Shown: one piece after another, positions 11,411-61,796 of the stretch
Layout: each line of letters starts with the position of its first letter
Numbering within the stretch: the stretch's first letter is position 1
Origin: Elusimicrobia bacterium GWA2_69_24
Lineage (GTDB): Bacteria; Elusimicrobiota; Elusimicrobia; UBA1565
Assembly (NCBI GenBank): GCA_001799695.1
Contig: MGTY01000022.1
Span: 4,031-68,030 of the forward strand
Direction: 5' to 3'
Length of the DNA stretch: 64,000 bases
The notes under the pieces: generated by a model
Databases searched by the model: none
Told to the model about the DNA's origin: nothing
Seen by the model: the letters and a program-made list of their open reading frames with translations, nothing else
Translations under genes and position numbers: made by a program

Positions 11411-11421
11411 CTGGAGATTCG

Positions 11422-24373: not shown

Positions 24374-24381
24374 CGTGAGTG

Positions 24382-25917: not shown

Positions 25918-25957
25918 GCGAGGACGGTCGGTCGGAGCGACCGCGAAGGAGAATAGC

Positions 25958-32406: not shown

Positions 32407-32417
32407 CAGGGGTAACC

Positions 32418-35083: not shown

Positions 35084-35114
35084 GGCCCGTGCTGGTTCCT
35101 GGACGGTGGCTCGC

Positions 35115-40785: not shown

Positions 40786-40941
40786 ACCGCACCTCCCGCA
40801 TGTCGCGCCCGCGATTTTCCGACCTCACCCGCCGATGTGGCGTCGGATGTCGGTGAACACTTTGGGGGAGATCCCAAGGACTGAACCGTAGAGGAATCGT
40901 TGAAAGCTGACGCAGCGGCTTACGACAGTGCAGGTCGTGTG

Positions 40942-42891
40942 ATGGCGACGATGGGGCCGTTGATTCCGTGGATACTCGTCTTCATCGCTGCAATGCGGCT
41001 CGTTCACCTGGACGCCGACCCGGGCCTCGTCAAGTCCATCCTCAACAACGCCGCCGACGTCGGCGACGAGGCCTACTGGGCCTTCGGCGCGAGGAACCTG
41101 ATCCTGTTTGGGACGCTGGCCTCCGACGACTATCTCCAGGCCGCCACCTCGCCCTTCTACACCGTCATCACGTACACGGCGTACTGGTTGTTCGGCGTCA
41201 GCATGTACACCACGCGATTGCCGAATGCCCTGCTGGGCATCGCGGCGGTCGTGCTCGCCTATCGGCTGATCCGGCCGTACAGCAAGCCCGCGGCGGTGGT
41301 CGCGGGCCTCACGCTGGCGCTGGAGAACAATTTCTTCATCCACACGCGCATGGGGCAGGTAGAGGCGACGAACGGGTTTTTCGCCCTGCTGGCGTTCTAC
41401 CTCCTGGTCCGGTCGAAGGCTCCGGGCCTCGCCGGGGTGGCCCTCGGGCTGAGCGTCGCCTCGAAGATCGTCGCTCTCCTGATGCTGCCGGCCTTCGCGC
41501 TGTTCTTCCTGCTCCAGTGGATCCGCGGGGTGGCCCGTGCGAGGGAGATGCTGCGGTTCTGCGCCGGTCTGGCGGCGGTCGGCGGCCTGCTCGTCGGCTT
41601 CGTCCTCTACTATCACGGCGTCTCGGCGCAGACGCAGGGGCTCTCCCTCCTGCGAAATCCCCTCCGCGCCGTGGTCGACTTCGTGACCGGGTACGATCTG
41701 GCGAATCCGCTGCGCTACGACGACGTCTTCATGAAGAACCTCGTGATGCAGTCGCAGGGGGTGGCGCTCGTGCGGAACCCCGCCCGGGTCCTCATCGATT
41801 TCGTCACCGGATTCTACATGTCGTATCCGTCGACCGTCTTGCTCGTCGTGCTGCTCGGCGGCTACGCGTGGCGGGCGCGAGTGGCGCTCTGGGTGGGCAG
41901 GGGCGCGCGCGAGCGACTCGCTCGGCTCACGGACATCGAGATCATGGTGGTCGCGTGGCTGGCCGGCTATGCGGTGAGCATGATCCTCCTGTCCGACATG
42001 CACAACCGTCGGATGAACCTGTTCACGATTCCGCTCGCGCTCGTGCCGGGGCTGCTTGTCCTGCGCGCGGAGGACGAGCCGATGACGGAGCGCCCCCGCG
42101 GACTCCAGGTGGCGCTGCTCTGCGCTCCTCCAGTGTTCGTGGGGATGCTTCTCGGGAGAAGGGTCCTCGAGGCGCTCACGGGACTCGGCACGGGATCGAG
42201 CCTGCTGGCCGCCGGGCTGATCACGGTCGCCGCGACGAGCGCCCTCGTGGTCTGGGCCCGTCCGTCGGCGCGATGGTGGGAGCGGGCCGGGTGGGTCACG
42301 CTGATGGCATGGGTCGCCCTCGCCTCGATGTCGCTCGGGTTCTCGTTGGTCACACGCATCCTGCCGAACCTCGGGGTGGCCAGCCGTCTGACCAAGGTCG
42401 GCATCGTGATCGTGTTCCTCACGGCGATGATCGTCCTCGGGATCCTGGCCCGGAAGAGCGCGCCGGCGGTCATCGTGGCGATGCTGCTGCTCAGCGCGTC
42501 GCTCGACGCGTACGACATCCTCGGCAGCTCGTTCAGCGCCCGCGACGCCTCGCTCCAGGTGCGGGCCGTGACGACGTCGGACGACTGGGGCATCGGCGAC
42601 GGCGCCCACGTCTTGAGCCTGAACGCGCCCTACCGTCCCGTGCAGGCCTATCCCGGCCGAGGCGTCAATCGCGACTTCGCGGCGACGGTCAGGCCGAGGT
42701 TCCTCTTCCGCGAGGTGGACCACCGGGACAAACGGTTCAACGATCCGAAGTGGACGGAGTTCAGCGTGAGGGAAGAGGACCTGTACGCGATCGGTGCGTC
42801 GAGGGTCGAGGCGATCGCCGAGTTCCCTCTGTACCCGGTGCTGAGCATGCCGGGCGAGGTGACCTATCGCCTCTACCGCGTGACGTATTGA
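40942..42891 (+). CDS. second ArnT/PMT-family GT-C glycosyltransferase
   Basis: N-terminal VHLDADPG...DEAYWAFGARNLILFG (GT-C DE motif). More than 10 TM helices, then a roughly 200-aa C-terminal soluble domain. Confidence 0.7.
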   Translation: MATMGPLIPWILVFIAAMRLVHLDADPGLVKSILNNAADVGDEAYWAFGARNLILFGTLASDDYLQAATSPFYTVITYTAYWLFGVSMYTTRLPNALLGIAAVVLAYRLIRPYSKPAAVVAGLTLALENNFFIHTRMGQVEATNGFFALLAFYLLVRSKAPGLAGVALGLSVASKIVALLMLPAFALFFLLQWIRGVARAREMLRFCAGLAAVGGLLVGFVLYYHGVSAQTQGLSLLRNPLRAVVDFVTGYDLANPLRYDDVFMKNLVMQSQGVALVRNPARVLIDFVTGFYMSYPSTVLLVVLLGGYAWRARVALWVGRGARERLARLTDIEIMVVAWLAGYAVSMILLSDMHNRRMNLFTIPLALVPGLLVLRAEDEPMTERPRGLQVALLCAPPVFVGMLLGRRVLEALTGLGTGSSLLAAGLITVAATSALVVWARPSARWWERAGWVTLMAWVALASMSLGFSLVTRILPNLGVASRLTKVGIVIVFLTAMIVLGILARKSAPAVIVAMLLLSASLDAYDILGSSFSARDASLQVRAVTTSDDWGIGDGAHVLSLNAPYRPVQAYPGRGVNRDFAATVRPRFLFREVDHRDKRFNDPKWTEFSVREEDLYAIGASRVEAIAEFPLYPVLSMPGEVTYRLYRVTY

Positions 42892-42920
42892 GGACCCGCG
42901 TTCTGGCGCGCCTGCGGGCG

Positions 42921-43907
42921 ATGTCGGTCGAGAAGCGGACGGCGGTCGCCGTGTCTCTCGTCCGGGTGGCCGTGGGCGGGGTGGCAGTTGCTCGGACCGT
43001 CGGCGGGCTGGTCGGCGGCCTCGACCGGGGCTGGTCCATGCTCCCGGTCGTTCTCGAGGGCGTGACGGGCGCGGGCGTCCTGCTCGGCGTCTTCTTCCGT
43101 CCGTGTCTGGCGCTCCTGGCGCTGAGCCTGCTCGTCGGGACGGTCGGCGCGTCCGACGGGGCGATCACGCTCGGGGCCGCGCCCTACGCCGCGCAGAGCC
43201 TCGGCGTCCTGGCGGCGCTCGCGCTCGTGGGGCCCGGCCGGTACACGCTGGGCTGGGTGGTCCGGCGGTTCCGGGGCGCGGCGATCAGCTATCCGGTGAC
43301 GCGACAGCCCACCGACATCTTCGGGCTGAAATACCTGCCGACGCTCGCGCCACGCCACAGCGACGACGCCGACTTCATCGTCGGCAAGCCGGTGGACGCG
43401 GAGGTCACGCCGCGAAATCTGCGAAAGCTCGAGGAGATCGTCCTGGCGACGAGGCAGAGCGGCAAGCTCATCGTCGAGATCGGCGTGTGCCGGAACGCCG
43501 AGGGCTCGTTCACCCACGTGCTGCTGCGGCACAAGCCGCGTGACGCCGTTTATCTCGGGATCGACATGGACGACAAGTCCTTCCTCGACGATCCGGCGAG
43601 GAGCATCCACACGCTGCGGACGGATTCGCGGGACCAGGATCTGGTGCGCGCCAAGATCAAGGAGCTCGGCGGCCCGCCGATCGGCATCCTGTTCATCGAC
43701 GGATGGCATTCCGTCAACGTCGCGGTGAACGACTGGAAGTACGCGGACCTGCTCGCCGAGGACGGCGTCGTGGTGCTCCACGACACGAACTGCCATCCCG
43801 GCCCCGTGTGCCTGTTCGACGCGGTGGACGAGCGACTCTTCCACAAGGAGAAGTTCTTCGAGCGCGAGCGGGACTGGGGGATGGCGGTGTTTCGAAGGCG
43901 TCGATGA
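42921..43907 (+). CDS. fusion of a DoxX-like four-TM domain with a class I SAM-dependent methyltransferase domain (Methyltransf_24/TylF-CmcI-like)
   Basis: The N-terminal 110 aa are hydrophobic and DoxX-like. The C-terminal region has LIVEIGVCRN, ILFIDGWHS, VVVLHDT. Confidence 0.6.
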   Translation: MSVEKRTAVAVSLVRVAVGGVAVARTVGGLVGGLDRGWSMLPVVLEGVTGAGVLLGVFFRPCLALLALSLLVGTVGASDGAITLGAAPYAAQSLGVLAALALVGPGRYTLGWVVRRFRGAAISYPVTRQPTDIFGLKYLPTLAPRHSDDADFIVGKPVDAEVTPRNLRKLEEIVLATRQSGKLIVEIGVCRNAEGSFTHVLLRHKPRDAVYLGIDMDDKSFLDDPARSIHTLRTDSRDQDLVRAKIKELGGPPIGILFIDGWHSVNVAVNDWKYADLLAEDGVVVLHDTNCHPGPVCLFDAVDERLFHKEKFFERERDWGMAVFRRRR

Positions 43908-43910
43908 GCC

Positions 43911-44906
43911 GTGAAGGCGCTCATCGTCGGGCTCGGCGGCATCGGACGGCGCCACGCAAGGAACCTCAAGGCGATCGACGGGTCGGCGCGGATCTGCGCC
44001 TGGCGCCCGCAGTCGGCGGACGACGGACTCGGCGACCTCGCCCCGCTGGTCGAGCGCGTCGTCCGCACCGCGGACGAGGCGCTCGCGTGGGGACCCGACC
44101 TGGCCGTGCTGGCGACTCCGGCTTCGATGCACGTGGAGGCGGCCGTGCCGCTGGCGCGCGCGGGGATTCACCTGCTCGTGGAGAAGCCGCTGTCGGACCG
44201 GCTCGACGCCGTGGATGGCCTGCTGGCGCTCTGTGAGGCGCGGGCGCTGGTGCTGATGGTCGGCTACAACCTGCGGTTCGCGCACTCGCTGGCGCGCCTG
44301 CGCGCCGCGCTGGCCGACGGCGCCATCGGGCGGGTGCTCGCGCTCCGCGCGGAGGTCGGTCAGTTCCTGCCCGACTGGCGCCAGGGGCGGGACTACCGGC
44401 GGTCGGCGAGCGCGCAGCGGGCGCTCGGCGGAGGCGCGGTCCTCGAGATGAGCCACGAGCTGGACTACGCGCGGTGGCTCCTGGGCGAGGTGACCGCGGT
44501 CAGCGCGCGGACCGCGCGCCTGGGTGACCTCGATGTCGACGTCGAGGACGCCGCGGAGATCACGCTCGAGTTCGCGAGCGGGGCGCTCGGGAACATCCAC
44601 GTGGACATGCTCGACCGCGCGAGGACGCGCGGGTGCCGGGTGGTGGGGACCGAAGGGACGCTCGTGTGGGATGGTGTCGAGCACCGGACGGAGCTGTTCA
44701 CGGCGTCGACGGGGACGTGGAGCGAGCTCTACTCCGGCGTCGGGGAGGATCGGAACGCGATGTACGTGGCGGAGCTGGAGCACTTCCTCGGGTGTGTCGC
44801 CGCGGGGCGCCCCGCGGCGATCACCGGCGCGGACGGCAAGCGGGTCGTCGAGATCGCGCTCGCCGCTCACCGGTCCGCCGCCACCCGCCAGGTGGTGTCG
44901 CTCTGA
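43911..44906 (+). CDS. Gfo/Idh/MocA-family oxidoreductase
   Basis: ALIVGLGGIGRRHA Rossmann motif and EKPLS. Confidence 0.8.
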   Translation: MKALIVGLGGIGRRHARNLKAIDGSARICAWRPQSADDGLGDLAPLVERVVRTADEALAWGPDLAVLATPASMHVEAAVPLARAGIHLLVEKPLSDRLDAVDGLLALCEARALVLMVGYNLRFAHSLARLRAALADGAIGRVLALRAEVGQFLPDWRQGRDYRRSASAQRALGGGAVLEMSHELDYARWLLGEVTAVSARTARLGDLDVDVEDAAEITLEFASGALGNIHVDMLDRARTRGCRVVGTEGTLVWDGVEHRTELFTASTGTWSELYSGVGEDRNAMYVAELEHFLGCVAAGRPAAITGADGKRVVEIALAAHRSAATRQVVSL

Positions 44907-44917
44907 ACCCGTACGTC

Positions 44918-45613
44918 GTGGGTGCGATCTTCGCCCGTGGGGGCTCCAAGGGCATTCCGCGGAAGAACCTCCGGCCGCTGGCCGGCCGTCCGCTGCTCGC
45001 GCACGCGATCGCCGCGGCGAGGTCGGCGAGGCACGTCCAGCGGGTCATCGTGTCCACCGACGATCCCGAGATCGCCGAGGTGGCGCGGCGGTACGGCGCC
45101 GAGATTCCGTTCATGCGGCCGGCCGAGCTGGCCGCGGACGACTCGCCGGAGTGGCTGGCGTGGCAGCACGCGATTCGCGCCCTGGAGGCGGCCGACGGCC
45201 GGACACTCGACGTGCTGGTGTCGGTGCCCACCACCTCGCCGCTGCGCGTCGCCGGGGACGTCGACGCGTGCGTCGAGGCCCTGCTGGACAGTGATGCCGA
45301 CGTCGTGATCACCGTGACGCCGGCCGACCGGAGCCCGTACTTCAACATGGTGGTGCTCGAGGGGGGGTACGCGCGGCCCGTGGTTCGCCCGGCCGGGCCG
45401 GTGCACCGCCGGCAAGACGCGCCGGCCATCTTCGACATGACGACGGTGGCCTACGCGGCCCGCGGCGGGTTCGTCATGCGCGCCTGCGAGCTGTTCGAGG
45501 GAAAGGTCCGGGCGGTGGTGGTGCCGCGCGAGCGCGCGCTCGACATCGACACGGAGCTCGACCTCGAAGTGGCGGAGTTCCTGGTCCAGCGGTCGCGAGC
45601 GCGGCGCCCGTGA
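44918..45613 (+). CDS. CMP-nonulosonic acid synthetase (acylneuraminate cytidylyltransferase family, NeuA/LegF/PtmB-like)
   Basis: AIFARGGSKGIPRKN P-loop signature. GTG start. Confidence 0.75.
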   Translation: MGAIFARGGSKGIPRKNLRPLAGRPLLAHAIAAARSARHVQRVIVSTDDPEIAEVARRYGAEIPFMRPAELAADDSPEWLAWQHAIRALEAADGRTLDVLVSVPTTSPLRVAGDVDACVEALLDSDADVVITVTPADRSPYFNMVVLEGGYARPVVRPAGPVHRRQDAPAIFDMTTVAYAARGGFVMRACELFEGKVRAVVVPRERALDIDTELDLEVAEFLVQRSRARRP

Positions 45614-46413
45614 GGTCGCTCAAGGAGCTGATGAGCCTCGCGGGACGCGTCGCGGTCATCACCGGCGGCGCGGGCCACCTCGGGCGCGCGATGGCCGAGA
45701 GCCTGGGCGAACTGGGGGCCACCGTGGTGCTGGTCGACATCGCGGGCGGCGCCGCCGCGAAGGTCGCGTCGGAGGTCCGGGCCAGCCACGGCGTCGAGGC
45801 GCTCCCGCTTGAGGTCGACCTCGCCGACGAGCCGGCGGTCCGCGGCGTGCCGCCCACCGTGCTGGGCCGGTTGGGCCGGCTCGACATCCTCATCAACAAC
45901 GCCGCACTGGTCGGGACGTCCGCGCTGGCCGGGTGGGCGGTCCCGTTCGCCGAGCAGTCCTCCGCGACCTGGCGGGCGGCTCTCGAGGTGAACCTCACCG
46001 CGGCCTTCGTGCTCGCGCAGGCGGCGGCGCCGGCGCTCAGCGCCTCGGGCCACGGCGCGGTGATCAACGTGGGGTCGACGTACGGCGTCGTGGGCCCCCA
46101 GATGACCCTCTACGCGGGGACGCCCCTCGGGAACCCCGCCGCCTACGCCGCGAGCAAGGGCGGCCTGCTGCAGCTCACGCGGTGGATGGCGACGGTGCTG
46201 GCGCCCGCGGTGCGGGTCAACGCGATCACGCCGGGCGGGATCTGGCGGCAGCAGCCCGACAGCTTCGTCCGGCGGTACGAGGCGCTGACGCCGCTCGGGC
46301 GGATGGCGAGCGAGGAGGATTTCAAGGGCGCGGTGGCCTACCTGGCGAGCGATCTCTCGCGCTACGTGACCGGGCACAACCTCGTGGTCGACGGCGGCTG
46401 GACGGCGTGGTGA
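45610..46413 (+). CDS. SDR-family oxidoreductase (PtmA-like position)
   Basis: GTGA overlap. VITGGAGHLGRAMA Rossmann motif and YAASKGGL (YxxxK). Confidence 0.8.
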   Translation: MRSLKELMSLAGRVAVITGGAGHLGRAMAESLGELGATVVLVDIAGGAAAKVASEVRASHGVEALPLEVDLADEPAVRGVPPTVLGRLGRLDILINNAALVGTSALAGWAVPFAEQSSATWRAALEVNLTAAFVLAQAAAPALSASGHGAVINVGSTYGVVGPQMTLYAGTPLGNPAAYAASKGGLLQLTRWMATVLAPAVRVNAITPGGIWRQQPDSFVRRYEALTPLGRMASEEDFKGAVAYLASDLSRYVTGHNLVVDGGWTAW

Positions 46414-47273
46414 GGGTCATCCCGCGCCTCGACATCAAGGGACCGAACCTGGTGAAGGGCGTGCACCTGGAGGGCCTGCGGGTCCTCGGGAAGCCCGAGC
46501 GGTTCGCGCGCCACTACTACGAGGCCGGCGCCGACGAGCTGCTGTACATGGACGTCGTCGCCAGCCTCTACGGGCGCAACAGCCTGCTCGACATCGTCGA
46601 GCAGACGGCCCGGGAGATCTTCATCCCGCTCACGGTCGGGGGCGGGCTCAGGAGCCTCGACGACATCCGGACGGTGCTGCGCGCCGGCGCCGACAAGGTC
46701 GCGCTCAACACCGCGGCGGTCCGGAGCCCCGAGCTGGTGCGGGAGGCCGCGCGGAAGTTCGGGTCGTCCACGATCGTGGTGTCGATCGAGGTGATCCGCC
46801 GTCCCGACGGGTCGTACGAGGCCTACACCGACAACGGCCGGGAGCGCACGGGGATCGACGCCTTCGAGTGGGCGCTGCGGGCCGCGGAGCTGGGCGCGGG
46901 CGAGCTCCTGGTCACCTCGATCGACCGGGAGGGCACCGGCCGGGGCTTCGACGTCGCGCTGACGCGGCGGATCTCCGAGGCGGTGTCGATCCCCGTCATC
47001 GCCTGCGGCGGCGCCGGCCTGCTCCAGCACATCCACGAGGCGGTGGCCGAGGGCAAGGCGCAGGCGGTGTGTGTCGCCTCGATCCTGCACTACGGTGTGG
47101 TCCGCAGCGTCGGCGCCCAGGACAGCTTCGACGAGGGGATCAACACGGTCCATCTGCTGCGCCGGCAGGGCTTCGAGAAGATCGAGGACACGACGCTGCC
47201 GGCCATCAAGCGCTACCTGCTCGACCGCGGCACCCCCTGCCGGCCGGTGGCGACGGGAGGGGGGCATGGCTAG
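46410..47273 (+). CDS. HisF-like cyclase subunit (WbuZ-type, glycan acetamidino formation)
   Basis: GTGA overlap. IPRLDIKGPNLVKGVHLEG and the (beta/alpha)8 motifs of imidazole-glycerol-phosphate synthase HisF. Confidence 0.8.
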   Translation: MRVIPRLDIKGPNLVKGVHLEGLRVLGKPERFARHYYEAGADELLYMDVVASLYGRNSLLDIVEQTAREIFIPLTVGGGLRSLDDIRTVLRAGADKVALNTAAVRSPELVREAARKFGSSTIVVSIEVIRRPDGSYEAYTDNGRERTGIDAFEWALRAAELGAGELLVTSIDREGTGRGFDVALTRRISEAVSIPVIACGGAGLLQHIHEAVAEGKAQAVCVASILHYGVVRSVGAQDSFDEGINTVHLLRRQGFEKIEDTTLPAIKRYLLDRGTPCRPVATGGGHG

Positions 47274-47919
47274 CCCGCTCGTGGCGATCGTAGACTTCGG
47301 CATGGGAAACCTCCACAGCGTCCGCCAGGCCTGCGCGCACGCGGGCCTGGACGGCCGCATCACCGCCTCGCCGTCGGACCTGGCGCGCGCCGATGCGATC
47401 ATCCTCCCCGGGGTGGGTGCGTACGCCGACGCGATGGCGACCCTCCGCCGGACGGGGATGGCGGACGCCCTTCGCGGGGCAGCCGAGTCCGGCAAGCCGC
47501 TCGTCGGCATCTGCCTGGGGCTCCAGCTCCTGATGAGCGAGAGCCTCGAGTTCGGCCGCCACGAAGGGCTCGGGCTGATCGCCGGGGACGTGGTGTACCT
47601 GGAGCCGGGTGCAGGCGCGGCAGCCGTGAAGGTCCCGCAGGTCGGCTGGAACCAGATCCACCGCACCGGGAGCTGGGAGGGCACGCTCCTCGACGGACTG
47701 CCGGACGGTGGGTTCATGTACTTCGTCCACTCCCTGCACGTGCGGCCGCGCGACCCGAGCGTCGTGCTGAGCACCACCCGCTACGGAGCCGTCGAGTTCT
47801 GCTCGAGCCTGCGTCAGCACAACGTGTTCGGCTGCCAGTTCCACCCCGAGCGCAGCGGCCCGGAGGGGCTTCACATGTACGCCACCCTCGCAACCACGCT
47901 GATGGCCGCCCATGCCTGA
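47266..47919 (+). CDS. HisH-like glutamine amidotransferase subunit (WbuY-type)
   Basis: VAIVDFGMGNLHS and GICLGLQLL (catalytic Cys), with FHPE further on. Confidence 0.8.
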   Translation: MASPLVAIVDFGMGNLHSVRQACAHAGLDGRITASPSDLARADAIILPGVGAYADAMATLRRTGMADALRGAAESGKPLVGICLGLQLLMSESLEFGRHEGLGLIAGDVVYLEPGAGAAAVKVPQVGWNQIHRTGSWEGTLLDGLPDGGFMYFVHSLHVRPRDPSVVLSTTRYGAVEFCSSLRQHNVFGCQFHPERSGPEGLHMYATLATTLMAAHA

Positions 47920-49183
47920 GCCGCTCGAAGCCAAGTACGGCCTGCCGCACGAGGTGGTCTTCTGCAAGAAGTGCGTGATCTCCAACCAGCGCCCGACCTC
48001 GAGCGTCGAATACGCGCACACGCGCGACTCCAAGAAGGGCACGATCTACTTCGACACCGAGGGCGTGTGCGACGCCTGCCGCTACACGGAGCTGAAACGG
48101 CACACCATCGACTGGGACGAGCGCGAGCGCGCGCTCCGCGACCTGTGTGACCGCTACCGAAGGCGCGACGGCGGCTACGACTGCATCGTGCCGGGCTCCG
48201 GGGGCAAGGACAGCTTCTACGCGGCCCACGTACTCAAGTACCGGTACGGCATGCACCCGCTCACCGTCACCTGGGCGCCGCACATCTACACCGACTGGGG
48301 CTGGAAGAACCACCAGGCGTGGATCCACGCCGGCTTCGACAACTACCTGTGCACGCCCAACGGCCAGGTGCATCGCCTGCTGACCCGGCTGGCGGTGCAG
48401 AACCTCTTCCACCCGTTCCAGGCGTTCATCATCGGGCAGAAGGCGCTGGCCCCGAAGATGGCGCGGCTGTTCGGGGTGCCGCTGGTGTTCTACGGCGAGA
48501 ACGAGGCGGAGTACGGCAATCCGATCCGGGACACGACGAGCGCCCAGCGCGACTGGGCGTACTTCACGGCGGTCGACCAGTCCGAGATCTATCTGGGCGG
48601 TACGTCGGTCGCCGAGCTGAAGGCGCGCTACGGCCTCGAGCAGAACGACCTGCAGCCGTACCTCCCCGCCGATCCGGACGAGCTGGCGAAGCTCCGGATG
48701 CAGGTGCACTACCTCGGCTACTACCTGCGGTGGCACCCGCAGAGCAACTACTACCACGCGGTCGAGCACGGCGGGTTCCAGGCGTCGCCCGAACGGACGC
48801 CGGGCACCTACAGCAAGTACAACAGCATCGACGACCGCATCGACGACTTCCACTACTGGACCACGCACGTCAAGTTCGGCATCGGCCGGGCCACCTACGA
48901 CGCCGCCCAGGAGATCCGGTCGGGCGACATCACGCGCGAGGAGGGAGTGGCCCTCGTCAAGCGGTTCGACGGCGAGTGGCCGGAGCGCTTCGCCGAGCAG
49001 ATCTTCGACTACCTGAGCATCGGCCCGAAGGTGCTGCCGGCGGCGTCGAAGGCGCTGGAGCGGCCGCGGATGACGCGCGAGGACTTCCTGGAGCTGGCCG
49101 ACGAGTTCCGCTCCCCGCACCTCTGGAAGCGGGAGGGCGGTCAGTGGATACTCCGTCACGCGGTCTGGCACGACGCCGCTTGA
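47912..49183 (+). CDS. N-acetyl sugar amidotransferase (WbuX/PseA/PtmG family, PP-loop ATPase)
   Basis: PP-loop CIVPGSGGKDS and the conserved N-terminal CKKCVISNQRP...CDAC zinc ribbon. Confidence 0.8.
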   Translation: MPEPLEAKYGLPHEVVFCKKCVISNQRPTSSVEYAHTRDSKKGTIYFDTEGVCDACRYTELKRHTIDWDERERALRDLCDRYRRRDGGYDCIVPGSGGKDSFYAAHVLKYRYGMHPLTVTWAPHIYTDWGWKNHQAWIHAGFDNYLCTPNGQVHRLLTRLAVQNLFHPFQAFIIGQKALAPKMARLFGVPLVFYGENEAEYGNPIRDTTSAQRDWAYFTAVDQSEIYLGGTSVAELKARYGLEQNDLQPYLPADPDELAKLRMQVHYLGYYLRWHPQSNYYHAVEHGGFQASPERTPGTYSKYNSIDDRIDDFHYWTTHVKFGIGRATYDAAQEIRSGDITREEGVALVKRFDGEWPERFAEQIFDYLSIGPKVLPAASKALERPRMTREDFLELADEFRSPHLWKREGGQWILRHAVWHDAA

Positions 49184-49196
49184 GGCGCGACGCGAG

Positions 49197-50180
49197 GTGA
49201 CCGTGGACAACGCCGTTCGCAGGGTTCTCGTGACCGGTGGCGCCGGGTACGTCGGCTCGGTCCTCGTGCCTCAGCTGCTGCACCGCGGCTACGCCGTGCG
49301 GGTGCTCGACAACCTCCGGTGGGAGGGGACGGCGCTCCTGGGGGTGGCCGCCGCCCCGGCCTTCGAGTTCCAGGCCGGCGACGTCCGGGACCGGGACGAC
49401 GTCGCCCGCGCGGTGCGGGACGTGGATGCGGTGGTGCACCTGGCCGCGATCGTGGGCGACCCCGCGTGCCGCCTCGAGCCGGCGCTGGCCGAGGAGATCA
49501 ACCTGACGGCCTCGCTCCGGCTGCTGGACGCGGCGCGGGCGGCGCGCGTCGGGCGCTTCGTGTTCGCGTCCACGTGCAGCAACTACGGCAGGATGGCGGA
49601 CGCGGCCGGATACTGCGACGAGACGACGCCGCTCCGGCCCGTGTCCCTGTACGCGGAGCTGAAGGTCAAGTTCGAGGAGCACCTGCTCGGCACCGCGGAC
49701 GGCCCGTGTGCCACCTCGCTCCGGTTCGCGACGGCGTACGGCCTGTCCTCCCGGATGCGGTTCGATCTCACGCTGAACGAGTTCACACGCGACGCCACGG
49801 CGGGCAAGGAGCTGATCGTGTACGGCGAGCAGTTCTGGCGCCCCTACGCCCACACCACGGATCTCGCCCGCGCCTGTCTCCACGTCCTCGAGCGGCCCGA
49901 GCGGGACGTGCACCGTCAGGCCTTCAACGTCGGCGACGACGCGGAGAACTACCAGAAGGCGATGCTGGTCCAGGAGATCACGAAGCAGATCCCCGGGCTC
50001 CGCTTCCGCTACGTCCACAAGGACGAGGATCCGCGGGACTACCGGGTCAGCTTCGAGAAGATCCGGGCGCTCGGCTTCCGTATCGCCCGGCGGATCCCCG
50101 ACGGGATCCGGGAGATCAGCGCGGCGATCCGGACCGGCCTGATCCGCGACCCCTACGACAAGAAGTACGTGAACGCCTAG
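49197..50180 (+). CDS. NAD-dependent NDP-sugar dehydratase/epimerase (LegB/PseB-like position)
   Basis: VLVTGGAGYVGS Rossmann motif and YAELKVKFE (YxxxK). Confidence 0.75.
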   Translation: MTVDNAVRRVLVTGGAGYVGSVLVPQLLHRGYAVRVLDNLRWEGTALLGVAAAPAFEFQAGDVRDRDDVARAVRDVDAVVHLAAIVGDPACRLEPALAEEINLTASLRLLDAARAARVGRFVFASTCSNYGRMADAAGYCDETTPLRPVSLYAELKVKFEEHLLGTADGPCATSLRFATAYGLSSRMRFDLTLNEFTRDATAGKELIVYGEQFWRPYAHTTDLARACLHVLERPERDVHRQAFNVGDDAENYQKAMLVQEITKQIPGLRFRYVHKDEDPRDYRVSFEKIRALGFRIARRIPDGIREISAAIRTGLIRDPYDKKYVNA

Positions 50181-50183
50181 CCC

Positions 50184-51341
50184 ATGATCCCGCTCTCGGT
50201 TCCCTCGCTGAAAGGCAACGAGCTCAAGTACGTCACCGAGTGCATCGAGACCGAGTGGGTTTCCTCGGCCGGCCCCTTCGTCACGCGCTTCGAGCGCGAC
50301 GTGGCGCGCTACCTGGAGATCCCGTCCGCGGTCGCGTGCATCAACGGCACCGCGGCGCTGCACACCGCGCTGCTGCTGACCGGCGTCGGCCCGGAGGACG
50401 AGGTGGTGGTGCCGACGCTGACGTTCATCGCCCCGGTGAACGCGGTCCGGTACGTCGGCGCGCATCCCGTCTTCATGGACTGCGACGACTGGCTGAACCT
50501 GGACGCGGAGAAGCTCGCCGAGTTCCTCGCGCGGGAGTGCGAGCCCGGCGACCGGGGGCTGGTCAATCGCGCGTCCGGGCGCCGCGTCGCGGCCGTGCTC
50601 GTCGTCCACGTGTTCGGGCATCCGGCCCGGCTCGCGCCGCTCCTCGGCCTGGCGCGACAGTTCCGGCTGCCGCTGATCGAGGACGCCACGGAGGCGCTCG
50701 GCTCGACCTACGAGGGCTGGGACGGCGCCCGGCGCTACGCGGGCACGCTCGGCGACGTCGGGTGTCTGTCCTTCAACGGCAACAAGCTCGTCACCACGGG
50801 GGGCGGCGGGATGCTCCTGACCCGCGACGCCGCGGTGGCGGAGCGGGCCAGGTACTTGACGACGCAAGCCAAGGACGACGGCGAGCGCTTCGTCCACCAC
50901 GAAGTCGGCTACAACTATCGGCTCACCAACGTGCAGGCGGCGATCGGGTGCGCGCAGCTCGAGCGGGTCGAGGAGTTCATCCGGATCAAGCGCGAGAACT
51001 TCGCCGCCTACCGCCGGTGCCTCGCCGACGTCCCCGGGCTCCGGCTGATCGAGGAGCCCCCGGGGACCCGCTCGAACTACTGGCACTACACGCTGGTCGT
51101 CGACGAGGACCGCTACGGCCAGAGCGCCGACACCCTCCGCCGGCGACTCGCCGAGCGCGCGATCGAGACGCGGCCGATCTGGGAGCTGAACCACCGGCAG
51201 CGGCCGTACCGGGACTGCCACGCGTACCGGATCGAGAAGGCGGTGCGCTACCACGCGCGGAGCGTGAACCTGCCGTGCAGCGTGGGCCTGGACCCGGAGC
51301 TGGTTCCCGAGGTCGCCCGGGTGATCAGGGAACGGGCGTGA
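50184..51341 (+). CDS. DegT/DnrJ/EryC1/StrS-family PLP-dependent sugar aminotransferase (LegC/PseC-like)
   Basis: GTAALHTAL, the conserved CLSFNGNKLVTTGGGG lysine region, and YNYRLTNVQAAIG. Confidence 0.85.
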   Translation: MIPLSVPSLKGNELKYVTECIETEWVSSAGPFVTRFERDVARYLEIPSAVACINGTAALHTALLLTGVGPEDEVVVPTLTFIAPVNAVRYVGAHPVFMDCDDWLNLDAEKLAEFLARECEPGDRGLVNRASGRRVAAVLVVHVFGHPARLAPLLGLARQFRLPLIEDATEALGSTYEGWDGARRYAGTLGDVGCLSFNGNKLVTTGGGGMLLTRDAAVAERARYLTTQAKDDGERFVHHEVGYNYRLTNVQAAIGCAQLERVEEFIRIKRENFAAYRRCLADVPGLRLIEEPPGTRSNYWHYTLVVDEDRYGQSADTLRRRLAERAIETRPIWELNHRQRPYRDCHAYRIEKAVRYHARSVNLPCSVGLDPELVPEVARVIRERA

Positions 51342-51976
51342 CGAAGACGCTGATCGTGGTCGGGGGCGGCGGACATGCCAAGGTGCTGATCGACGCGATC
51401 CGGTCGGGCGCCGAGTACGACCTCGTCGGCATCGTGGACGCGCGCCTGCCCGTGGGCCACCGGGTGCTCGACGTTCCCGTCATCGGGAGCGACGACCTCC
51501 TGCTGCGCGGGGAGCCTCCCCGCAGCGTCCTGGCGCTCGGGGTCGGCTCGATCAGGGGCGGGGACCGGCGCAAGCGGCTGCATGATCGGTTCCGGGAGCT
51601 GGCCTACGAGTTCCCGGTCATCCGCCACGCGCGGGCGACGGTCGGTCCCGGCGTGCGGCTGGGCGACGGCACCCAGGTCATGGCGGGCGCCGTCGTCCAG
51701 CCCGACACGTCCCTCGGCCCGAACTGCATCGTCAACACCGCCGCCGTCATCGAGCACGACTGCACGATCGCCGGCCACTGCCAGGCGGCGCCGGGTGCGG
51801 TGCTGGGCGGCGGCGTCGTCGTCGGCGAGTGCAGCTTCATCGGTCTGGGCGCCCGCGTCCTGCCCGGGATCAGGATCGGCTGTCACGTGACGGTGGGCGC
51901 CGGGGCGGTGGTCGTGCACGACGTGGAGGACGGCGCCACGGTCGTCGGGGTGCCGGCGCGGCGGATCGCGGGCTGA
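51338..51976 (+). CDS. hexapeptide-repeat N-acetyltransferase (PglD/NeuD/LegH-like)
   Basis: GTGA overlap. N-terminal LIVVGGGGHAKV, then a left-handed beta-helix with hexapeptide repeats. Confidence 0.75.
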   Translation: MTKTLIVVGGGGHAKVLIDAIRSGAEYDLVGIVDARLPVGHRVLDVPVIGSDDLLLRGEPPRSVLALGVGSIRGGDRRKRLHDRFRELAYEFPVIRHARATVGPGVRLGDGTQVMAGAVVQPDTSLGPNCIVNTAAVIEHDCTIAGHCQAAPGAVLGGGVVVGECSFIGLGARVLPGIRIGCHVTVGAGAVVVHDVEDGATVVGVPARRIAG

Positions 51977-51981
51977 GCACC

Positions 51982-53151
51982 GTGCGGACCATCTGCGTCG
52001 TCACGGGGACCCGGGCCGAGTACGGCATCCTCTACTGGCTCCTGCGGGAGATCGCGGACGATCCCGCGCTTCGCCTCCAGGTCGTCGCCACCGGGATGCA
52101 CCTGTCGCCGGAGTTCGGCCTCACCTACCGTCTGATCGAGGAGGACGGCTTCGGGCTTGCGGCCAAGGTGGAGATGCTGACCTCGAGCGACACACCGGTC
52201 GGCATCGCTAAGTCGATCGGGCTCGGCACGATCGGCTTCGCGGACACGCTCGATCGGCTGCGGCCGGACATCCTGGTCGTGCTCGGCGACCGGTTCGAGA
52301 TCCTCGCGGCGGTCACGGCGGCGGCGGTCGCGCGCGTGTGCATCGCCCATCTCCACGGCGGGGAGTCGTCGGAAGGCGTGGTGGACGAGGCGTTCCGCCA
52401 CGCGATCACCAAGATGTCGCACCTGCACTTCACCGCGGCGGAGGCGTACCGGCAGCGGGTGATCCAGATGGGGGAGGCGCCGGAGCGCGTCTTCAACGTC
52501 GGCGCGCCCGGGCTGGACAACCTCCGCCGGCTCCGGCTGCTCGAGCGCGGGGAGCTGGCGGACACCCTCGGGCTCGCGCCCGGCCGCCGGTTCCTGCTTG
52601 TCACCTATCACCCGGTCACGCTCGAGAACGACACGGCGGGCGACCAGGTGGTGAAGCTCCTGAAGGCACTGGATGCCTTCCCCGACCACGGTATCGTCTT
52701 CACCAAGTCGAACGCGGATGCCGGGGGACGGGTCATCGTGCGCCTGCTCGATGCCTACGTGGAGCGGAACCCGGGTCGCGCGGTGGCGCACACCTCGCTG
52801 GGGCAGCAGCGGTACCTGAGCGCGCTCAAGCACGCCGACGCCGTCGTCGGCAACTCGTCGAGCGGCCTGATCGAGGCGCCGTCGCTCCACACGCCGACCG
52901 TCGACGTCGGCGACCGGCAGCGCGGCCGCCTGGTCGCGGGCTCGGTCGTCCGGTGCGGCAACGAGGTCGAGGAGATCCGCGCGGCCATCGAGCGCGCGCT
53001 GAGCCCGGCGTTCCGGGCGGCGCTGCCCGGCGTCCGGAACCCGTACGGCGAGCCCGGCGCGTCCGGCCGGATCAAGGAGGTGCTGAAATCCGTCGCCCTG
53101 GACGCGCGTATGCTCAAGAAGCGCTTCCACGTGGCCGGAGCGCCGCGGTGA
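51982..53151 (+). CDS. UDP/GDP-N-acetylhexosamine 2-epimerase (hydrolysing), NeuC/LegG-like
   Basis: ICVVTGTRAEYGILYWLL and HLHGGE motifs. GTG start. Confidence 0.8.
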   Translation: MRTICVVTGTRAEYGILYWLLREIADDPALRLQVVATGMHLSPEFGLTYRLIEEDGFGLAAKVEMLTSSDTPVGIAKSIGLGTIGFADTLDRLRPDILVVLGDRFEILAAVTAAAVARVCIAHLHGGESSEGVVDEAFRHAITKMSHLHFTAAEAYRQRVIQMGEAPERVFNVGAPGLDNLRRLRLLERGELADTLGLAPGRRFLLVTYHPVTLENDTAGDQVVKLLKALDAFPDHGIVFTKSNADAGGRVIVRLLDAYVERNPGRAVAHTSLGQQRYLSALKHADAVVGNSSSGLIEAPSLHTPTVDVGDRQRGRLVAGSVVRCGNEVEEIRAAIERALSPAFRAALPGVRNPYGEPGASGRIKEVLKSVALDARMLKKRFHVAGAPR

Positions 53152-54176
53152 GCGCCGGCGCGCGCCACACGTACGTCATCGCCGAGGCCGGCGTGAACCA
53201 CAACGGCCGCCTGGCGACCGCGACCCGGCTGATCGACGTCGCGGTCGAGGCCGGCGCCGACGCCGTGAAGTTCCAGACGTTCAGGACCGAGAGCCTGGTC
53301 ACGAGCGAGGCCGAGACGCCGGAGTACCAGAAGAACGTGCCGGGCGGGGGCGAGCACCAGTGGAAGGTCCTGAAACAGCTCGAGCTGTCCTTCGAGGACT
53401 TCGCCCGCCTGCGGACCCACTGCGACACGCGCGGCATCGAGTTCCTGTCCACCCCCTTCGACCCCGAGAGCGCGCGGTTCCTCGTCGAGGAGCTGGGCGT
53501 CAGGCGGGTGAAGATCCCGTCGGGTGAGGTCGCGAACCTGCCCTTCCTCAGAGACCTGGCGGCGTTCGGACGCCCGCTGATCCTCTCGACGGGGATGAGC
53601 GACCTCGCGGAGGTGGAGCAGGCCGTCGGCGCCATCCGGGGCGCGGCCGCCACGGTCCCGCTGACGCTGCTCCACTGCACGACGAACTACCCGTGCCCGT
53701 TCGAGGACGTCAATCTGAGGGCGATGGTCACGCTGAGGGAGCGCTTCGGGCTCCCGGTGGGCTACTCCGACCACACGATGGGTATCGAGGTCGCCGTGGC
53801 GGCGACGGCGCTGGGCGCCGAGGTCATCGAGAAGCACTTCACGCTGGACCGGACGCTGCCAGGGCCCGATCACCGGTGCTCCCTCGAGCCCGACGAGCTG
53901 GCGCAGATGGTGCGCTCGATCCGGAACATCGAGCGGGCGCTCGGGGACGGCGAGAAGCGGCCGACGCCCGCCGAGCTGCAGATCAGGCAGCAGGTCCGGC
54001 GGAGCCTCGTGCTGACGCGGGCGCTGGTCGCCGGCGCCCGCCTGGCGGCGACCGACGTGATGGCCAAGCGGCCGGCGGGCGGGATCGAGCCCGGCGCCGT
54101 CGATCGCGTGCTGGGCCGGCGGCTCCGCGTCGGCAAGGCCGCGGACGAGATCCTGCGATGGGACGATCTTGATTGA
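53148..54176 (+). CDS. nonulosonic acid synthase (NeuB/LegI/PseI family) with C-terminal SAF domain
   Basis: GTGA overlap. YVIAEAGVNHNG, FDPESARFL, and a C-terminal SAF (antifreeze-like) domain. Confidence 0.85.
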   Translation: MSAGARHTYVIAEAGVNHNGRLATATRLIDVAVEAGADAVKFQTFRTESLVTSEAETPEYQKNVPGGGEHQWKVLKQLELSFEDFARLRTHCDTRGIEFLSTPFDPESARFLVEELGVRRVKIPSGEVANLPFLRDLAAFGRPLILSTGMSDLAEVEQAVGAIRGAAATVPLTLLHCTTNYPCPFEDVNLRAMVTLRERFGLPVGYSDHTMGIEVAVAATALGAEVIEKHFTLDRTLPGPDHRCSLEPDELAQMVRSIRNIERALGDGEKRPTPAELQIRQQVRRSLVLTRALVAGARLAATDVMAKRPAGGIEPGAVDRVLGRRLRVGKAADEILRWDDLD

Positions 54177-54227
54177 CCGGTGGCCGGTCGAGGCGCCGAT
54201 CACGCCGCGGCCTGTCGGAGCACGCCG

Positions 54228-55304
54228 ATGATGCCGAGCGAGGTCGCCAAGCTGCTCGTCCAGGAGCATCTCCCGGTGCGGGAGGCGCTGAAGCAGATGG
54301 ATCTGGCCGGCGCCAAGATCCTCTTCGTCGTGGACGAGCGCCAGCGGCTGCGCGGGGCGCTCACGGACGGCGACATCCGGCGGTGGATCCTCGGCGAGGG
54401 CTCGCTGCACGAGCCCGTGGACCGGGTGTGCAACCGGCAGCCGAAGGCGGTGCGAAAGGGCACCGACTCGGCCGCGATCCGGGAGCTCATGCTGCACCAG
54501 AAGATCGAGGCGGTGCCGGTCCTCGACCAGGACGACGCCGTGCTGGACGTGCTGCTGTGGACGGACGTCTTCTCCGGCGAGTCCGCGCCGGCGCAGCCCG
54601 GCCTGGGCCTGCCGGTCGTGGTCATGGCCGGCGGGCGGGGCACGCGGCTCGAGCCCTTCACCAAGATCCTGCCGAAGCCGCTCATCCCGGTCGGCGACAA
54701 GCCGATCATCGAGCTGATCATGGACCGCTTCGCCGAGCACGGGTGCCGCGAGTTCTACCTGACGCTGAACTACAAGGGCAAGATGATCCAGTCCTACTTC
54801 GATCACGCCGATTGCCCGCACAGCGTGAAGTTCGTCTGGGAGGACGAGTTCCTCGGCACCGCCGGCAGCCTGCGGCTCACGGCGCCGCTGATCGAGGCGC
54901 CCCACCTGTTCGTGTCGAACTGCGACATCCTGATCCTGGCCGACTACGCCGACATCTACAGCTTCCACCTCCAGCGGGGCAACGACGTCACCGTGGTTGG
55001 CTCGATGCAGCACGTCTCGGTGCCCTTTGGCGTGCTGCAGGTGAAGAACGGGGGGTATCTCGACGCCATCGTGGAGAAGCCGGAGTTCGACTTCCTCGCC
55101 AACACCGGGATGTACCTGCTCCGGGCCGGCGTGATCGACCTGATCCCGCCCGACACGAAGACGGATTTCCCCGAGCTGCTGGCGCGCGTCAAGGCGACCG
55201 GCGGCAAGGTCGGCGTGTACCCGGTCAGCGCGCAGTCCTGGACCGACATCGGCCAGTGGCAGGAGTACCGGACCGCGCTCAAGAAGCTGGAGCAGCAGAG
55301 CTGA
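54228..55304 (+). CDS. CBS-pair + nucleotidyltransferase (PtmE-like hexosamine-1-P guanylyl/nucleotidyltransferase)
   Basis: The N-terminal roughly 120 aa carry two CBS motifs. The NTP_transferase P-loop is VVMAGGRGTRLEP. Confidence 0.75.
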   Translation: MMPSEVAKLLVQEHLPVREALKQMDLAGAKILFVVDERQRLRGALTDGDIRRWILGEGSLHEPVDRVCNRQPKAVRKGTDSAAIRELMLHQKIEAVPVLDQDDAVLDVLLWTDVFSGESAPAQPGLGLPVVVMAGGRGTRLEPFTKILPKPLIPVGDKPIIELIMDRFAEHGCREFYLTLNYKGKMIQSYFDHADCPHSVKFVWEDEFLGTAGSLRLTAPLIEAPHLFVSNCDILILADYADIYSFHLQRGNDVTVVGSMQHVSVPFGVLQVKNGGYLDAIVEKPEFDFLANTGMYLLRAGVIDLIPPDTKTDFPELLARVKATGGKVGVYPVSAQSWTDIGQWQEYRTALKKLEQQS

Positions 55305-55315
55305 GCGTGTCGAGC

Positions 55316-56722
55316 ATGTCTGACATCGAGCGACTCGTAAGGGCGTTCCTCGCCTTCGAGACGCGATACGACGTGTTCTCGCTGCAGGTCCGCGGGCATT
55401 GTTTCTGGGACTACATCCGCTACGCGGTGTTCTACGAGTGCGTGTACTCGACGCACAACTACCGCGATCCTCGGATGCTCAGACCTCAGCACTATGTCAG
55501 GGAGACATGGCCACTGGCCCGATCATTCATCGGCGAGCTGCTCACCCCGGCGCGTCCGTACGACATCCTCGTCGTCAACTACGACCGGACGGTTCTGATT
55601 GATGGCAAGCACCGCAACGCCCACATGTACCCGTTCATCTACGAGCTCGCGGAAGCGTACTCAATCCTCCTGGTTGATGCGTCGCTGCTCCGGCAGATCG
55701 ATGACGGGGCGTACCCGTGCCGGATCCTCCGGTTCCGGCCGTTCCACCTCCTGGATCGCCTCAAGGCGATGCGAGTGCGCTGGGATGGGCGTGAGCGCGC
55801 CCTCATGGCGTCGCTCGCCGCGACGATCCGGCAGGAACTCGGGGTAGCCGTGGACGTACACGGCTTGGCCAGGAGCGTGTTCGCGCTGCAGCTCGAGAAG
55901 TACCGGCGATACCTGCGTTTATTCAGGAAATATAGGCCCCGGATGCTCGTCTACACCGACTCGGGGGACATGAAGGGTGCGATTGCCGCTGCCCGAGAGA
56001 TGGGAATCCGGACGGTGGATCTGCAGCACTCGCTGGTTTCGTTCCTGAACATTCTCTACAACTATCCCGACGATCCCAAGGCGCATGCGGTCTCGCTGAG
56101 ATCGGATTATATTTTTTCGTACGGCGACTATTGGACGCCCGAATACCGGTTACCGGCAAAGGTTGTGCCGGTTGGCTACCCGTACCTTGAAGCGCGACTT
56201 GCGACCACGCCTCGGTCCGAATGTGATCGCGGACGGAATATCATCGTCATCGGGATGTTGTTCGAGAAGGACATCCTCGTCCAAATCGCGATTGAGTTGG
56301 CGCGCTTGCTCCCGAACTACCGAATCTTCTACAAGTTACGTATCGAGGACTATCCGGACTGGCGGAGTCGATACCCGAGAGAGTTGCAGACGGCGTCGAA
56401 CATCACGGTCATCGACAGTAATGCGGTCTCGCTGTTCGAGTACTTCTCGATGTGCGCCTACCAGATCGGCACGAACTCAGGAGGGCTCTTCGAGGGATTG
56501 GCCTTCGATCTCACCACGTTCGTCGTCGAGGCGGGATGGTATGCGGAGATGAACGGACTGATAGAGGGTGACCATGCGTTCTTGGTGTCAACGGCTGCGG
56601 AGATCGCTGAGAAGATTCGCGCCAACACCCGACCGCTTCGTACCTTGAGCCCGGACAAACTGTTCAAGAGCGACAGCTTGAGGAACATGCGCCGGGCTGT
56701 CGACACCGTGGCATCGCTGTAG
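55316..56722 (+). CDS. hypothetical protein, candidate nonulosonic-acid or capsule glycosyltransferase
   Basis: 468 aa with no recognised motif. Lower GC. Sits between the PtmE-like gene and two methyltransferases. Confidence 0.45.
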   Translation: MSDIERLVRAFLAFETRYDVFSLQVRGHCFWDYIRYAVFYECVYSTHNYRDPRMLRPQHYVRETWPLARSFIGELLTPARPYDILVVNYDRTVLIDGKHRNAHMYPFIYELAEAYSILLVDASLLRQIDDGAYPCRILRFRPFHLLDRLKAMRVRWDGRERALMASLAATIRQELGVAVDVHGLARSVFALQLEKYRRYLRLFRKYRPRMLVYTDSGDMKGAIAAAREMGIRTVDLQHSLVSFLNILYNYPDDPKAHAVSLRSDYIFSYGDYWTPEYRLPAKVVPVGYPYLEARLATTPRSECDRGRNIIVIGMLFEKDILVQIAIELARLLPNYRIFYKLRIEDYPDWRSRYPRELQTASNITVIDSNAVSLFEYFSMCAYQIGTNSGGLFEGLAFDLTTFVVEAGWYAEMNGLIEGDHAFLVSTAAEIAEKIRANTRPLRTLSPDKLFKSDSLRNMRRAVDTVASL

Positions 56723-56731
56723 GAGTCAGCG

Positions 56732-57541: not shown

Positions 57542-57559
57542 CGGACGATAGCGGTCGCT

Positions 57560-58264: not shown

Positions 58265-58269
58265 CGCGA

Positions 58270-59259: not shown

Positions 59260-59269
59260 GAAGTATCTG

Positions 59270-60460: not shown

Positions 60461-60483
60461 CGCCAGGAGACGAGGGAGGAGCG

Positions 60484-61794: not shown

Positions 61795-61796
61795 GC

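Follow-up and report, generated by a model that had tools for sequence, protein, structure and literature searches.

Within the 64,000-nucleotide stretch of contig MGTY01000022.1 from Elusimicrobia bacterium GWA2_69_24 that was analyzed here (hereafter the window, with positions counted from its first letter), the twelve genes at 43911-55304 form a real and largely ordinary operon for a legionaminic-acid-like, acetamidino-modified nine-carbon surface sugar. It is a known kind of system with a sole real variant feature: the place of the usual first enzyme, LegB, is taken by a short-chain dehydrogenase/reductase (SDR) with a Thr-Cys-Ser (T-C-S) catalytic motif, encoded at 49197. This protein appears to belong to an uncharacterized family that stands in for LegB. 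A search of the available literature found no paper on a T-C-S SDR in place of LegB, and none tying nonulosonic acids (NulO), among them legionaminic acid (Leg), to the Elusimicrobia.

All twelve genes lie on the + strand in a single co-directional run whose starts and stops mostly overlap; the junctions range from -8 to +19 nt, with overlaps of 4 or 8 nt at five of them. The reading frames are backed by codon-position GC content (GC at third positions, GC3, is 0.82-0.97, in a window of approximately 70% GC), and the inventory and contiguous, overlapping layout given by the first-pass annotation, which was made from the sequence alone, stand as described, with every listed gene present at its + strand coordinates. 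The operon itself spans more than this run, from about 40900 to at least 63650. Gene families were assigned with Pfam and NCBIfam models, and scores were compared with the curated bit cutoffs, with the following results.

43911-44906, + strand: GFO/IDH/MocA oxidoreductase, PtmF-like (PF01408, PF22725, PF02894)
44918-45613, + strand: CMP-nonulosonate synthetase, LegF/NeuA-like (PF02348 CTP_transf_3; N-terminal ARGGSKGIPRKN motif)
45610-46413, + strand: classical SDR, PtmA-like (adh_short_C2, 157 bits; NF006619/PRK09186, 166 bits, below the cutoff of 255)
46410-47273, + strand: HisF-like cyclase subunit, WbuZ (TIGR03572 WbuZ, 270.6 bits, below 299.7; HisF, 271 bits, below 294.6)
47266-47919, + strand: HisH-like glutaminase subunit, WbuY (TIGR01855, 185 bits, above 105; GICLG nucleophile elbow and HPE motif)
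47912-49183, + strand: WbuX-family N-acetyl sugar amidotransferase (TIGR03573, 383.5 bits, above 203.2; PP-loop SGGKDS at residue 96)
49197-50180, + strand: extended SDR of the 'STCSNYG' family, occupying the LegB position (LegB model, 72.6 bits, cutoff 475)
50184-51341, + strand: LegC-family 4-aminotransferase (TIGR04181, 470.2 bits, above 420)
51338-51976, + strand: NeuD/PglD-type N-acetyltransferase in the LegH role (PglD_N and Hexapep; TIGR03570, 210.2 bits, above 160.8)
51982-53151, + strand: hydrolyzing nucleoside diphosphate (NDP)-sugar 2-epimerase, LegG-like, NeuC_NnaA (TIGR03568, 461.6 bits, above 235.9)
53148-54176, + strand: nonulosonate synthase, LegI/NeuB-like, with a SAF domain (TIGR03569 NeuB_NnaB, 447.5 bits, above 399.65)
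54180-55304, + strand: CBS pair and sugar-1-phosphate nucleotidyltransferase, PtmE-like (PF00571 and PF00483)

The enzymes of this set are of the legionaminic type and not the pseudaminic or sialic type, as was first proposed. The aminotransferase at 50184 exceeds the cutoff for LegC but not that for PseC, and its best matches among solved structures in the Protein Data Bank (PDB) are GDP-perosamine synthase and PglE. The 2-epimerase at 51982 matches the Acinetobacter baumannii GDP/UDP-diNAcBac 2-epimerase LegG (5XVS) with 355 bits and 49% identity, versus 184 bits for human GNE, and the synthase at 53148 is 49-54% identical to LegI of canonical, PGAP-annotated Leg clusters versus 36% to Neisseria meningitidis NeuB. 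In a small neighbor-joining (NJ) tree with a narrow reference set, rooted on the same NeuB, the synthase falls among those of the canonical Leg clusters. A pseudaminic acid route was rejected, as PseB, PseC, PseI and PseF models gave 47.7, 203.8, 272.5 and 141.6 bits against cutoffs of 407.75, 423.5, 340.25 and 205.7, respectively. A plain sialic acid route (Neu5Ac, NeuABC) was also excluded, because the amination module of SDR, aminotransferase and acetyltransferase is present and linked by translational coupling to the genes resembling NeuC and NeuB; the match of the 2-epimerase to LegG is also much better than that to GNE.

The oxidoreductase, cytidylyltransferase and SDR at the start of the run are the counterpart of PtmF/LegF/PtmA in described Leg loci. 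The same trio is present in the canonical Leg clusters L005, L006 and L090, and its members are respectively 37-40%, 38-47% and 40-42% identical to their counterparts in L005 and L006, where the PtmA-like SDR likewise follows the cytidylyltransferase. PtmF is a 326-residue oxidoreductase in the Leg locus of Plesiomonas shigelloides (PMC4481668), which together with Tannerella forsythia (PMC5378307) extends the GDP-dependent CMP-legionaminic acid pathway beyond Campylobacter jejuni. Comparison with the C. jejuni pathway (LegB, C, H, G, I and F with PtmE, F and A) shows the window to have the LegC-family, PglD/NeuD-type, 2-epimerase, NeuB-type, cytidylyltransferase and CBS-nucleotidyltransferase proteins, with the oxidoreductase and SDR in the PtmF/LegF/PtmA arrangement, but no LegB orthologue.

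The pathway had been annotated as complete, beginning with a dehydratase at 49197. The other Leg families are indeed present, but the first step would rely on a non-orthologous SDR and not on a recognizable LegB or 4,6-dehydratase; the protein is a member of the epimerase/dehydratase superfamily, yet it is without the dehydratase acid/base residues. It matches the LegB model TIGR04180 over its N-terminal half only, and shares 24-27% identity with three LegB proteins annotated by PGAP in Leg clusters on plasmids. At the catalytic site it reads ASTCSNYG, versus TSTSE(V/T)YG in these three proteins, whose T-S-E is the signature common to GDP-mannose 4,6-dehydratase. According to a review of nucleotide-sugar dehydratases, the 4,6-dehydratase classes have T-D-E, T-D-K or T-S-E (PMC8987622, Table 1), and the 5,6-dehydratase TunA has T-C-E (PMC8987622). 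The T-C-S motif is without the dehydratase base residue, and is invariant in all 120 of the 120 best homologues, whose identities to the window protein range from 55 to 100% (P0001 in the database, where it begins at 49203).

A model search of the whole 64-kb window found no member of the LegB model, the other SDRs scoring 82-181 bits. Four of these were considered as the missing dehydratase and rejected: those at 58234 (T-S-S), 23324 (S-S-S) and 25958 (S-S-S) have no acid/base pair and are under the LegB cutoff, and that at 31414 (S-P-E) keeps the Glu but is also under the cutoff and lies 17 kb upstream within a C-methyl deoxysugar sub-cluster. The last of these scores 210 bits with the dTDP-glucose dehydratase model, below its cutoff of 365.

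The closest solved relative of the T-C-S SDR is 6VO6/6VO8 (198-205 bits, 38% identity over approximately 305 residues), and 6VO6 is presumably Cj1427, in agreement with the title given by its depositors. In published work Cj1427 serves as a C4-dehydrogenase for GDP-heptose, with alpha-ketoglutarate as the co-substrate and C4 being oxidized without dehydration (PMC10680097). Both proteins have a Ser at the dehydratase base position and an SPRMR(F/L)DL region, but the equivalent motif in Cj1427 is T-N-S, with an Asn where the window protein and its homologues have the invariant Cys. The two also differ in their partners, an epimerase/reductase pair for Cj1427 and an aminotransferase for the window protein, and in substrate, which is a heptose for Cj1427 and presumably an N-acetylhexosamine (HexNAc) here.

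This relationship raises the possibility that the T-C-S SDR is itself a C4-dehydrogenase like Cj1427 and leaves C6 oxygenated, in which case the product would be an acetamidino-bearing 5,7-diamino-3,5,7-trideoxy (9-hydroxy) nonulosonic acid, and the bound NADH may be re-oxidized by alpha-ketoglutarate released by the adjacent aminotransferase. The match to Cj1427 is far over that to any dehydratase, the base residue is absent from both T-C-S and T-N-S, and Cj1427 was assayed with just this co-substrate (PMC10680097). We nonetheless regard a simple C4-dehydrogenase as unlikely, in view of the family contexts and trees described below.

Scanning species-representative genomes with the family alignment gave at least 575 confirmed matching stretches, a number limited by the search pattern, from which 80 loci were kept and their contexts scored by tblastn with the window proteins. 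A DegT/LegC-like aminotransferase is present in 59 of the 80 kept loci and is directly downstream of the SDR in every locus inspected; a PtmE-like nucleotidyltransferase is nearby in 32, and a NeuB-like synthase in 14. Among the other contexts are a PglD / SDR / DegT / Bac_transf module and, in Tellurirhabdus rosea, a self-contained island consisting of GT4 glycosyltransferase, T-C-S SDR, DegT aminotransferase and nucleotidyltransferase genes. Because of the pairing in 59 loci and the self-contained Tellurirhabdus island, we view the T-C-S SDR as the supplier of a keto-sugar to the aminotransferase. The same pairing would suit a C4-dehydrogenase through coupled redox and transamination, for which WbpB/WbpE provides a precedent.

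A full NulO gene set with a T-C-S SDR and without LegB is present in at least eight loci of other phyla, outside the window (L048, L059, L065, L068, L070, L076, L084 and L087). Setting aside L087, a close relative of the window cluster, these carry the labels of metagenome-assembled genomes (MAGs) of Desulfovibrionales, Myxococcales, Acidobacteria, Pseudomonadota and others, and L068 also encodes WbuX, HisF and HisH proteins 59-65% identical to those of the window. Two further loci have a canonical LegB gene immediately upstream of the T-C-S SDR gene (L029, 7226-11707; L031, 8742-10981). The order in L029 is nucleotidyltransferase, LegB (508 bits), T-C-S SDR, LegC (538 bits) and GNAT, and a NulO synthase was not found on its 15-kb contig. 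These tandems suggest that redundancy between the two SDRs is not universal, and the distinct activities at which they hint are what a C4-dehydrogenase would predict.

The L029 tandem could also represent a linear series of dehydratase, epimerase and aminotransferase, in which the T-C-S SDR, whether or not it dehydrates, would combine C4 oxidation with a Cys-mediated epimerization of C3 or C5 to give a stereoisomer of legionaminic acid. The invariant Cys adjoins the catalytic Thr, and some SDR epimerases, GDP-mannose 3,5-epimerase and GDP-fucose synthase among them, have a Cys as acid/base residue. However, LegB is absent as a source of the 4-keto sugar from both the window and the eight or more other NulO loci, the aminotransferase exceeds the cutoff of the LegC family, and the LegG-like enzyme shares its 49% identity with a true LegG, and we therefore consider such an oxidation and epimerization to be quite improbable.

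The evolutionary relationship of the two kinds of cluster is reflected in NJ trees (100 bootstraps) of LegI, LegG, LegC, LegH, PtmE and LegF from five LegB-type and 14-15 T-C-S-type clusters. A clean split of the two types was recovered in 0, 9, 0, 9, 16 and 0 of the 100 replicates, respectively, and, L087 aside, the nearest neighbor of the window LegG, LegH and LegF is in each case from the LegB-type cluster of Azospirillum thermophilum. The downstream enzymes of the two cluster types thus intermix, and therefore LegB and the T-C-S SDR have been swapped in Leg clusters that are otherwise ordinary; this exchange is most simply explained if both give the same intermediate. A C4-dehydrogenase is harder to reconcile with LegG and LegI proteins that interleave with those of LegB-type clusters, or with the invariant Cys that takes the place of the Asn in Cj1427 and hints at additional acid/base chemistry. 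To our knowledge 4-amino-4-deoxy hexoses retaining the 6-OH are rare in known glycans, which also counts against it. We know of no description of a 9-hydroxy 5,7-diamino nonulosonic acid class. The broader proposal that the T-C-S SDR family, with its 575 or more stretches, is a new NDP-HexNAc C4-oxidizing class, and that its Leg-like clusters make a 9-hydroxy diamino(acetamidino) NulO, is in our view doubtful.

We think it reasonably probable that the T-C-S SDR is a non-orthologous replacement of LegB, giving a 4-keto-6-deoxy intermediate, and that the cluster would still yield a CMP-Leg5Am7Ac-like sugar. A non-orthologous 4,6-dehydratase is the likeliest reading because the cluster types intermix in the trees and because a Cys is invariant at the general-acid position; the latter suggests a chemistry beyond simple dehydrogenation, and perhaps the SDR uses this Cys as general acid/base. 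Several observations weigh against a 4,6-dehydratase and the product proposed from it. Every 4,6-dehydratase class so far described has a Glu or Lys base that the SDR lacks (PMC8987622, Table 1), Cj1427 as the nearest characterized relative of the SDR oxidizes C4 without dehydrating (PMC10680097), and the 64-kb window is without any LegB-model member. The tandem of LegB, T-C-S SDR and LegC in L029 would also be surprising if the two SDRs were equivalent. The trees are small NJ trees with only five canonical references, the HisF-like subunit falls slightly short of both relevant models, and the substrate of WbuX, the nucleotide and the product stereochemistry are all putative.

Gene content, family membership and synteny are demonstrated here, and it is from these that we infer all of the chemical steps. 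In the proposed route, the PtmE-like CBS-nucleotidyltransferase would first provide a dedicated, probably GDP-linked HexN(Ac), from which SDR 49197 would generate an NDP-4-keto sugar, to be aminated at C4 by LegC and N-acetylated by the PglD/NeuD-type transferase. The LegG-like enzyme would then remove the nucleotide and epimerize C2, the LegI-like synthase would condense the product with phosphoenolpyruvate, and the cytidylyltransferase would activate the resulting nonulosonate. Finally, WbuX, using glutamine-derived ammonia from HisH/HisF, would convert one N-acetyl group to N-acetimidoyl.

The CBS-nucleotidyltransferase at 54180, for which the PtmE architecture noticed initially was confirmed, bears on the nucleotide of this route. 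Its best NCBIfam and PDB matches are mannose-1-phosphate, heptose-1-phosphate and glucosamine-1-phosphate nucleotidyl- and guanylyltransferases, its closest solved relatives being guanylyltransferases, and it is 30-34% identical to the equivalent gene products of L005 and L006. C. jejuni PtmE is reported to be GTP-specific, as cited in PMC5378307. A GDP-linked route would also fit because the SDR resembles a GDP-sugar enzyme and LegC resembles GDP-perosamine synthase.

The adjacent PP-loop WbuX, HisH and HisF-like proteins correspond to the WbuX/WbuY/WbuZ acetamidino system, as the first-pass annotation had recognized; related systems are C. jejuni PseA and PtmG with their HisH/HisF homologues and that of the Legionella Leg5Am7Ac O-antigen. 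The WbuX and HisH proteins score over their cutoffs and the HisF-like protein is adjacent to them, differing from the known system in being just under the WbuZ and HisF cutoffs; its identity to the protein annotated as WbuZ in L006 is 65%, and that of WbuX to the 'N-acetyl sugar amidotransferase' of that cluster is 73%. Here the three genes are embedded in the cluster, and three other arrangements also place them within NulO clusters: after PtmA in L006, split around LegC in L068, and in L087. Because of these arrangements a NulO is favored as the putative WbuX substrate.

WbuX-family enzymes act on non-NulO sugars elsewhere, such as FucNAm in E. coli O145, and the operon has further sugar-modifying enzymes, including SDR 58234, a UDP-sugar dehydrogenase and AsnB. 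It is thus conceivable that the Leg-type NulO stays di-N-acetylated and that WbuX/HisH/HisF amidinate some other N-acetyl sugar of the polysaccharide, for example a 6-deoxy-HexNAc or a HexNAc uronate. We consider this very unlikely, as the amidotransferase genes sit between the CMP-synthetase/SDR and SDR/LegC pairs, are also within the NulO clusters of L006, L068 and L087, and include a WbuX closely similar to that of a canonical Leg cluster.

A full counterpart of the twelve-gene run is locus L006 itself, on plasmid NZ_CP042825 of Rhizobium sp. WL3, where all 12 gene families occur and had been annotated before. In addition to the WbuX and HisF identities given above, LegI, LegG and LegC are 49%, 46% and 42% identical to those of the window. 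The L006 cluster differs in its order, with the Leg core first and the amidotransferase set last, and in having a canonical LegB with the T-S-E motif. The occurrence of such a cluster in a genome of 70% GC had been singled out as notable, but LegC-type clusters are present on Bradyrhizobium, Azospirillum, Rhizobium, Sinorhizobium and Streptomyces replicons, among them high-GC plasmid and chromid examples, and the high GC is therefore not remarkable. Proteins identical to SDR 49197 and to the GT-B protein at 55316 have been deposited from two groundwater/sediment MAGs, 'Elusimicrobia bacterium GWA2_69_24' and 'Candidatus Rokubacteria bacterium RBG_16_73_20'.

Viewed simply as a Leg-type NulO cluster that includes amidotransferase genes, the operon is one more environmental example, from a candidate-phylum groundwater MAG. 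Its wider relevance lies in the SDR, a member of a widespread and uncharacterized family that repeatedly replaces LegB in Leg-like and bacillosamine-like modules. If this SDR is a dehydratase, it represents a new catalytic solution, with a Cys and no Glu/Lys base, and closes an annotation gap by which pathways are scored as 'incomplete'; as a dehydrogenase, it would instead point to surface sugars of a new family.

In contrast to the C. jejuni pathway, no flagellin or Maf genes were found near the cluster, and the context is that of a polysaccharide: Wzi is encoded in the window, as are UppS, several glycosyltransferases and an ABC exporter, and L087 has both Wzx and Wzy_C. The target is most likely a Wzx/Wzy-built surface polysaccharide. 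The remaining genes of the operon flanking the twelve-gene run are as follows.

40900-43907, + strand: PMT_2-type membrane glycosyltransferase and Methyltransf_24 protein, upstream operon genes (Pfam; 3-nt gap to 43911)
55316-56722, + strand: orphan GT-B-fold protein (structure model; no Pfam or NCBIfam match)
56732-60460, + strand: two methyltransferases, an SDR (T-S-S motif) and a GT4 glycosyltransferase, downstream operon genes (Pfam)

The GT-B orphan is a candidate NulO transferase, by position only. It is 468 residues long, and has only 13 homologues in a set of approximately 5.8 billion proteins. Its AlphaFold (AF2) model has a mean confidence score (pLDDT) of 89 and a GT-B fold, and Foldseek matches it to GT-B glycosyltransferases, 2-epimerases and a bacterial polysialyltransferase with E values of about 1e-9 to 1e-10. 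Residues Q237-H238, Y339-K340-L341 and E393 are invariant in this family, one distant member of which carries PF27859. In L087 the GT-B homologue comes after the Wzx flippase gene and is followed by the same methyltransferases, SDR, GT4 glycosyltransferase, UDP-sugar dehydrogenase, AsnB and DUF218 genes and then by a Wzy_C polymerase; the order of the genes at 56732-60460 is kept, with 71-82% identity.

The region at 55300-58260, comprising the orphan GT-B and two methyltransferase genes, has a reduced GC content (0.58-0.67, versus about 0.70-0.74 elsewhere, with GC3 of about 0.7-0.85), a pattern typical for glycan genes that are serotype-specific or exchanged horizontally. At 60480-63650, a UDP-glucose/GDP-mannose dehydrogenase gene is followed by that of a glutamine-hydrolyzing asparagine synthase (AsnB). 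The pair is also conserved in L087, and it suggests that the same polysaccharide contains an amidated uronic acid.

Several other sugar modules are present elsewhere in the window. A heptose module at 22654-26959 (+ strand) consists of GmhA, an SDR (S-S-S), an HldE-like protein and a second SDR at 25958-26959 (S-S-S); the HldE-like bifunctional protein has a swapped domain order, with the adenylyl/cytidylyltransferase N-terminal and the PfkB kinase C-terminal, and the second SDR shares 39% identity with the T-C-S SDR and 34% with Cj1427. Between the heptose-pathway and deoxysugar genes is a split transketolase (26419-28715, + strand), with an N-terminal thiamine pyrophosphate (TPP)-binding part followed by a Pyr/C-terminal part, and next to it a zinc alcohol dehydrogenase gene (28719-29759); together these could carry out a two-carbon transfer onto a sugar, in branched or higher-carbon sugar synthesis. 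What looks like a separate C-methylated deoxysugar pathway lies at 31414-33080 (+ strand) and at 33105-36317 and 36340-37227 (both - strand), with two NDP-hexose C-methyltransferase-like genes (Methyltransf_13/14), an RmlD-like reductase, SDRs, a methyltransferase and the S-P-E SDR.

Five open reading frames of 207-588 codons supported by GC3, within 5575-8630, 20314-22652 and 29769-30392, have no Pfam or NCBIfam match and may supply the glycan island with membrane polymerase, ligase or export components. HEPN-domain and minimal nucleotidyltransferase genes resembling HEPN/MNT toxin-antitoxin systems are interspersed among the polysaccharide genes at 8676-9074 (+ strand), 11006-11452 (- strand) and 11422-11955 (- strand). 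The island also includes a RuBisCO-like protein gene (16352-17476, + strand) next to genes for a MobA-like nucleotidyltransferase and an ABC exporter (17790-18572 and 18614-20413), an unusual context for such a protein; it has the RuBisCO_large catalytic domain and scores 188 bits with the type III model (cutoff 497), 172 bits with that of DK-MTP-1-P enolase and 149 bits with that of OiaX decarboxylase.

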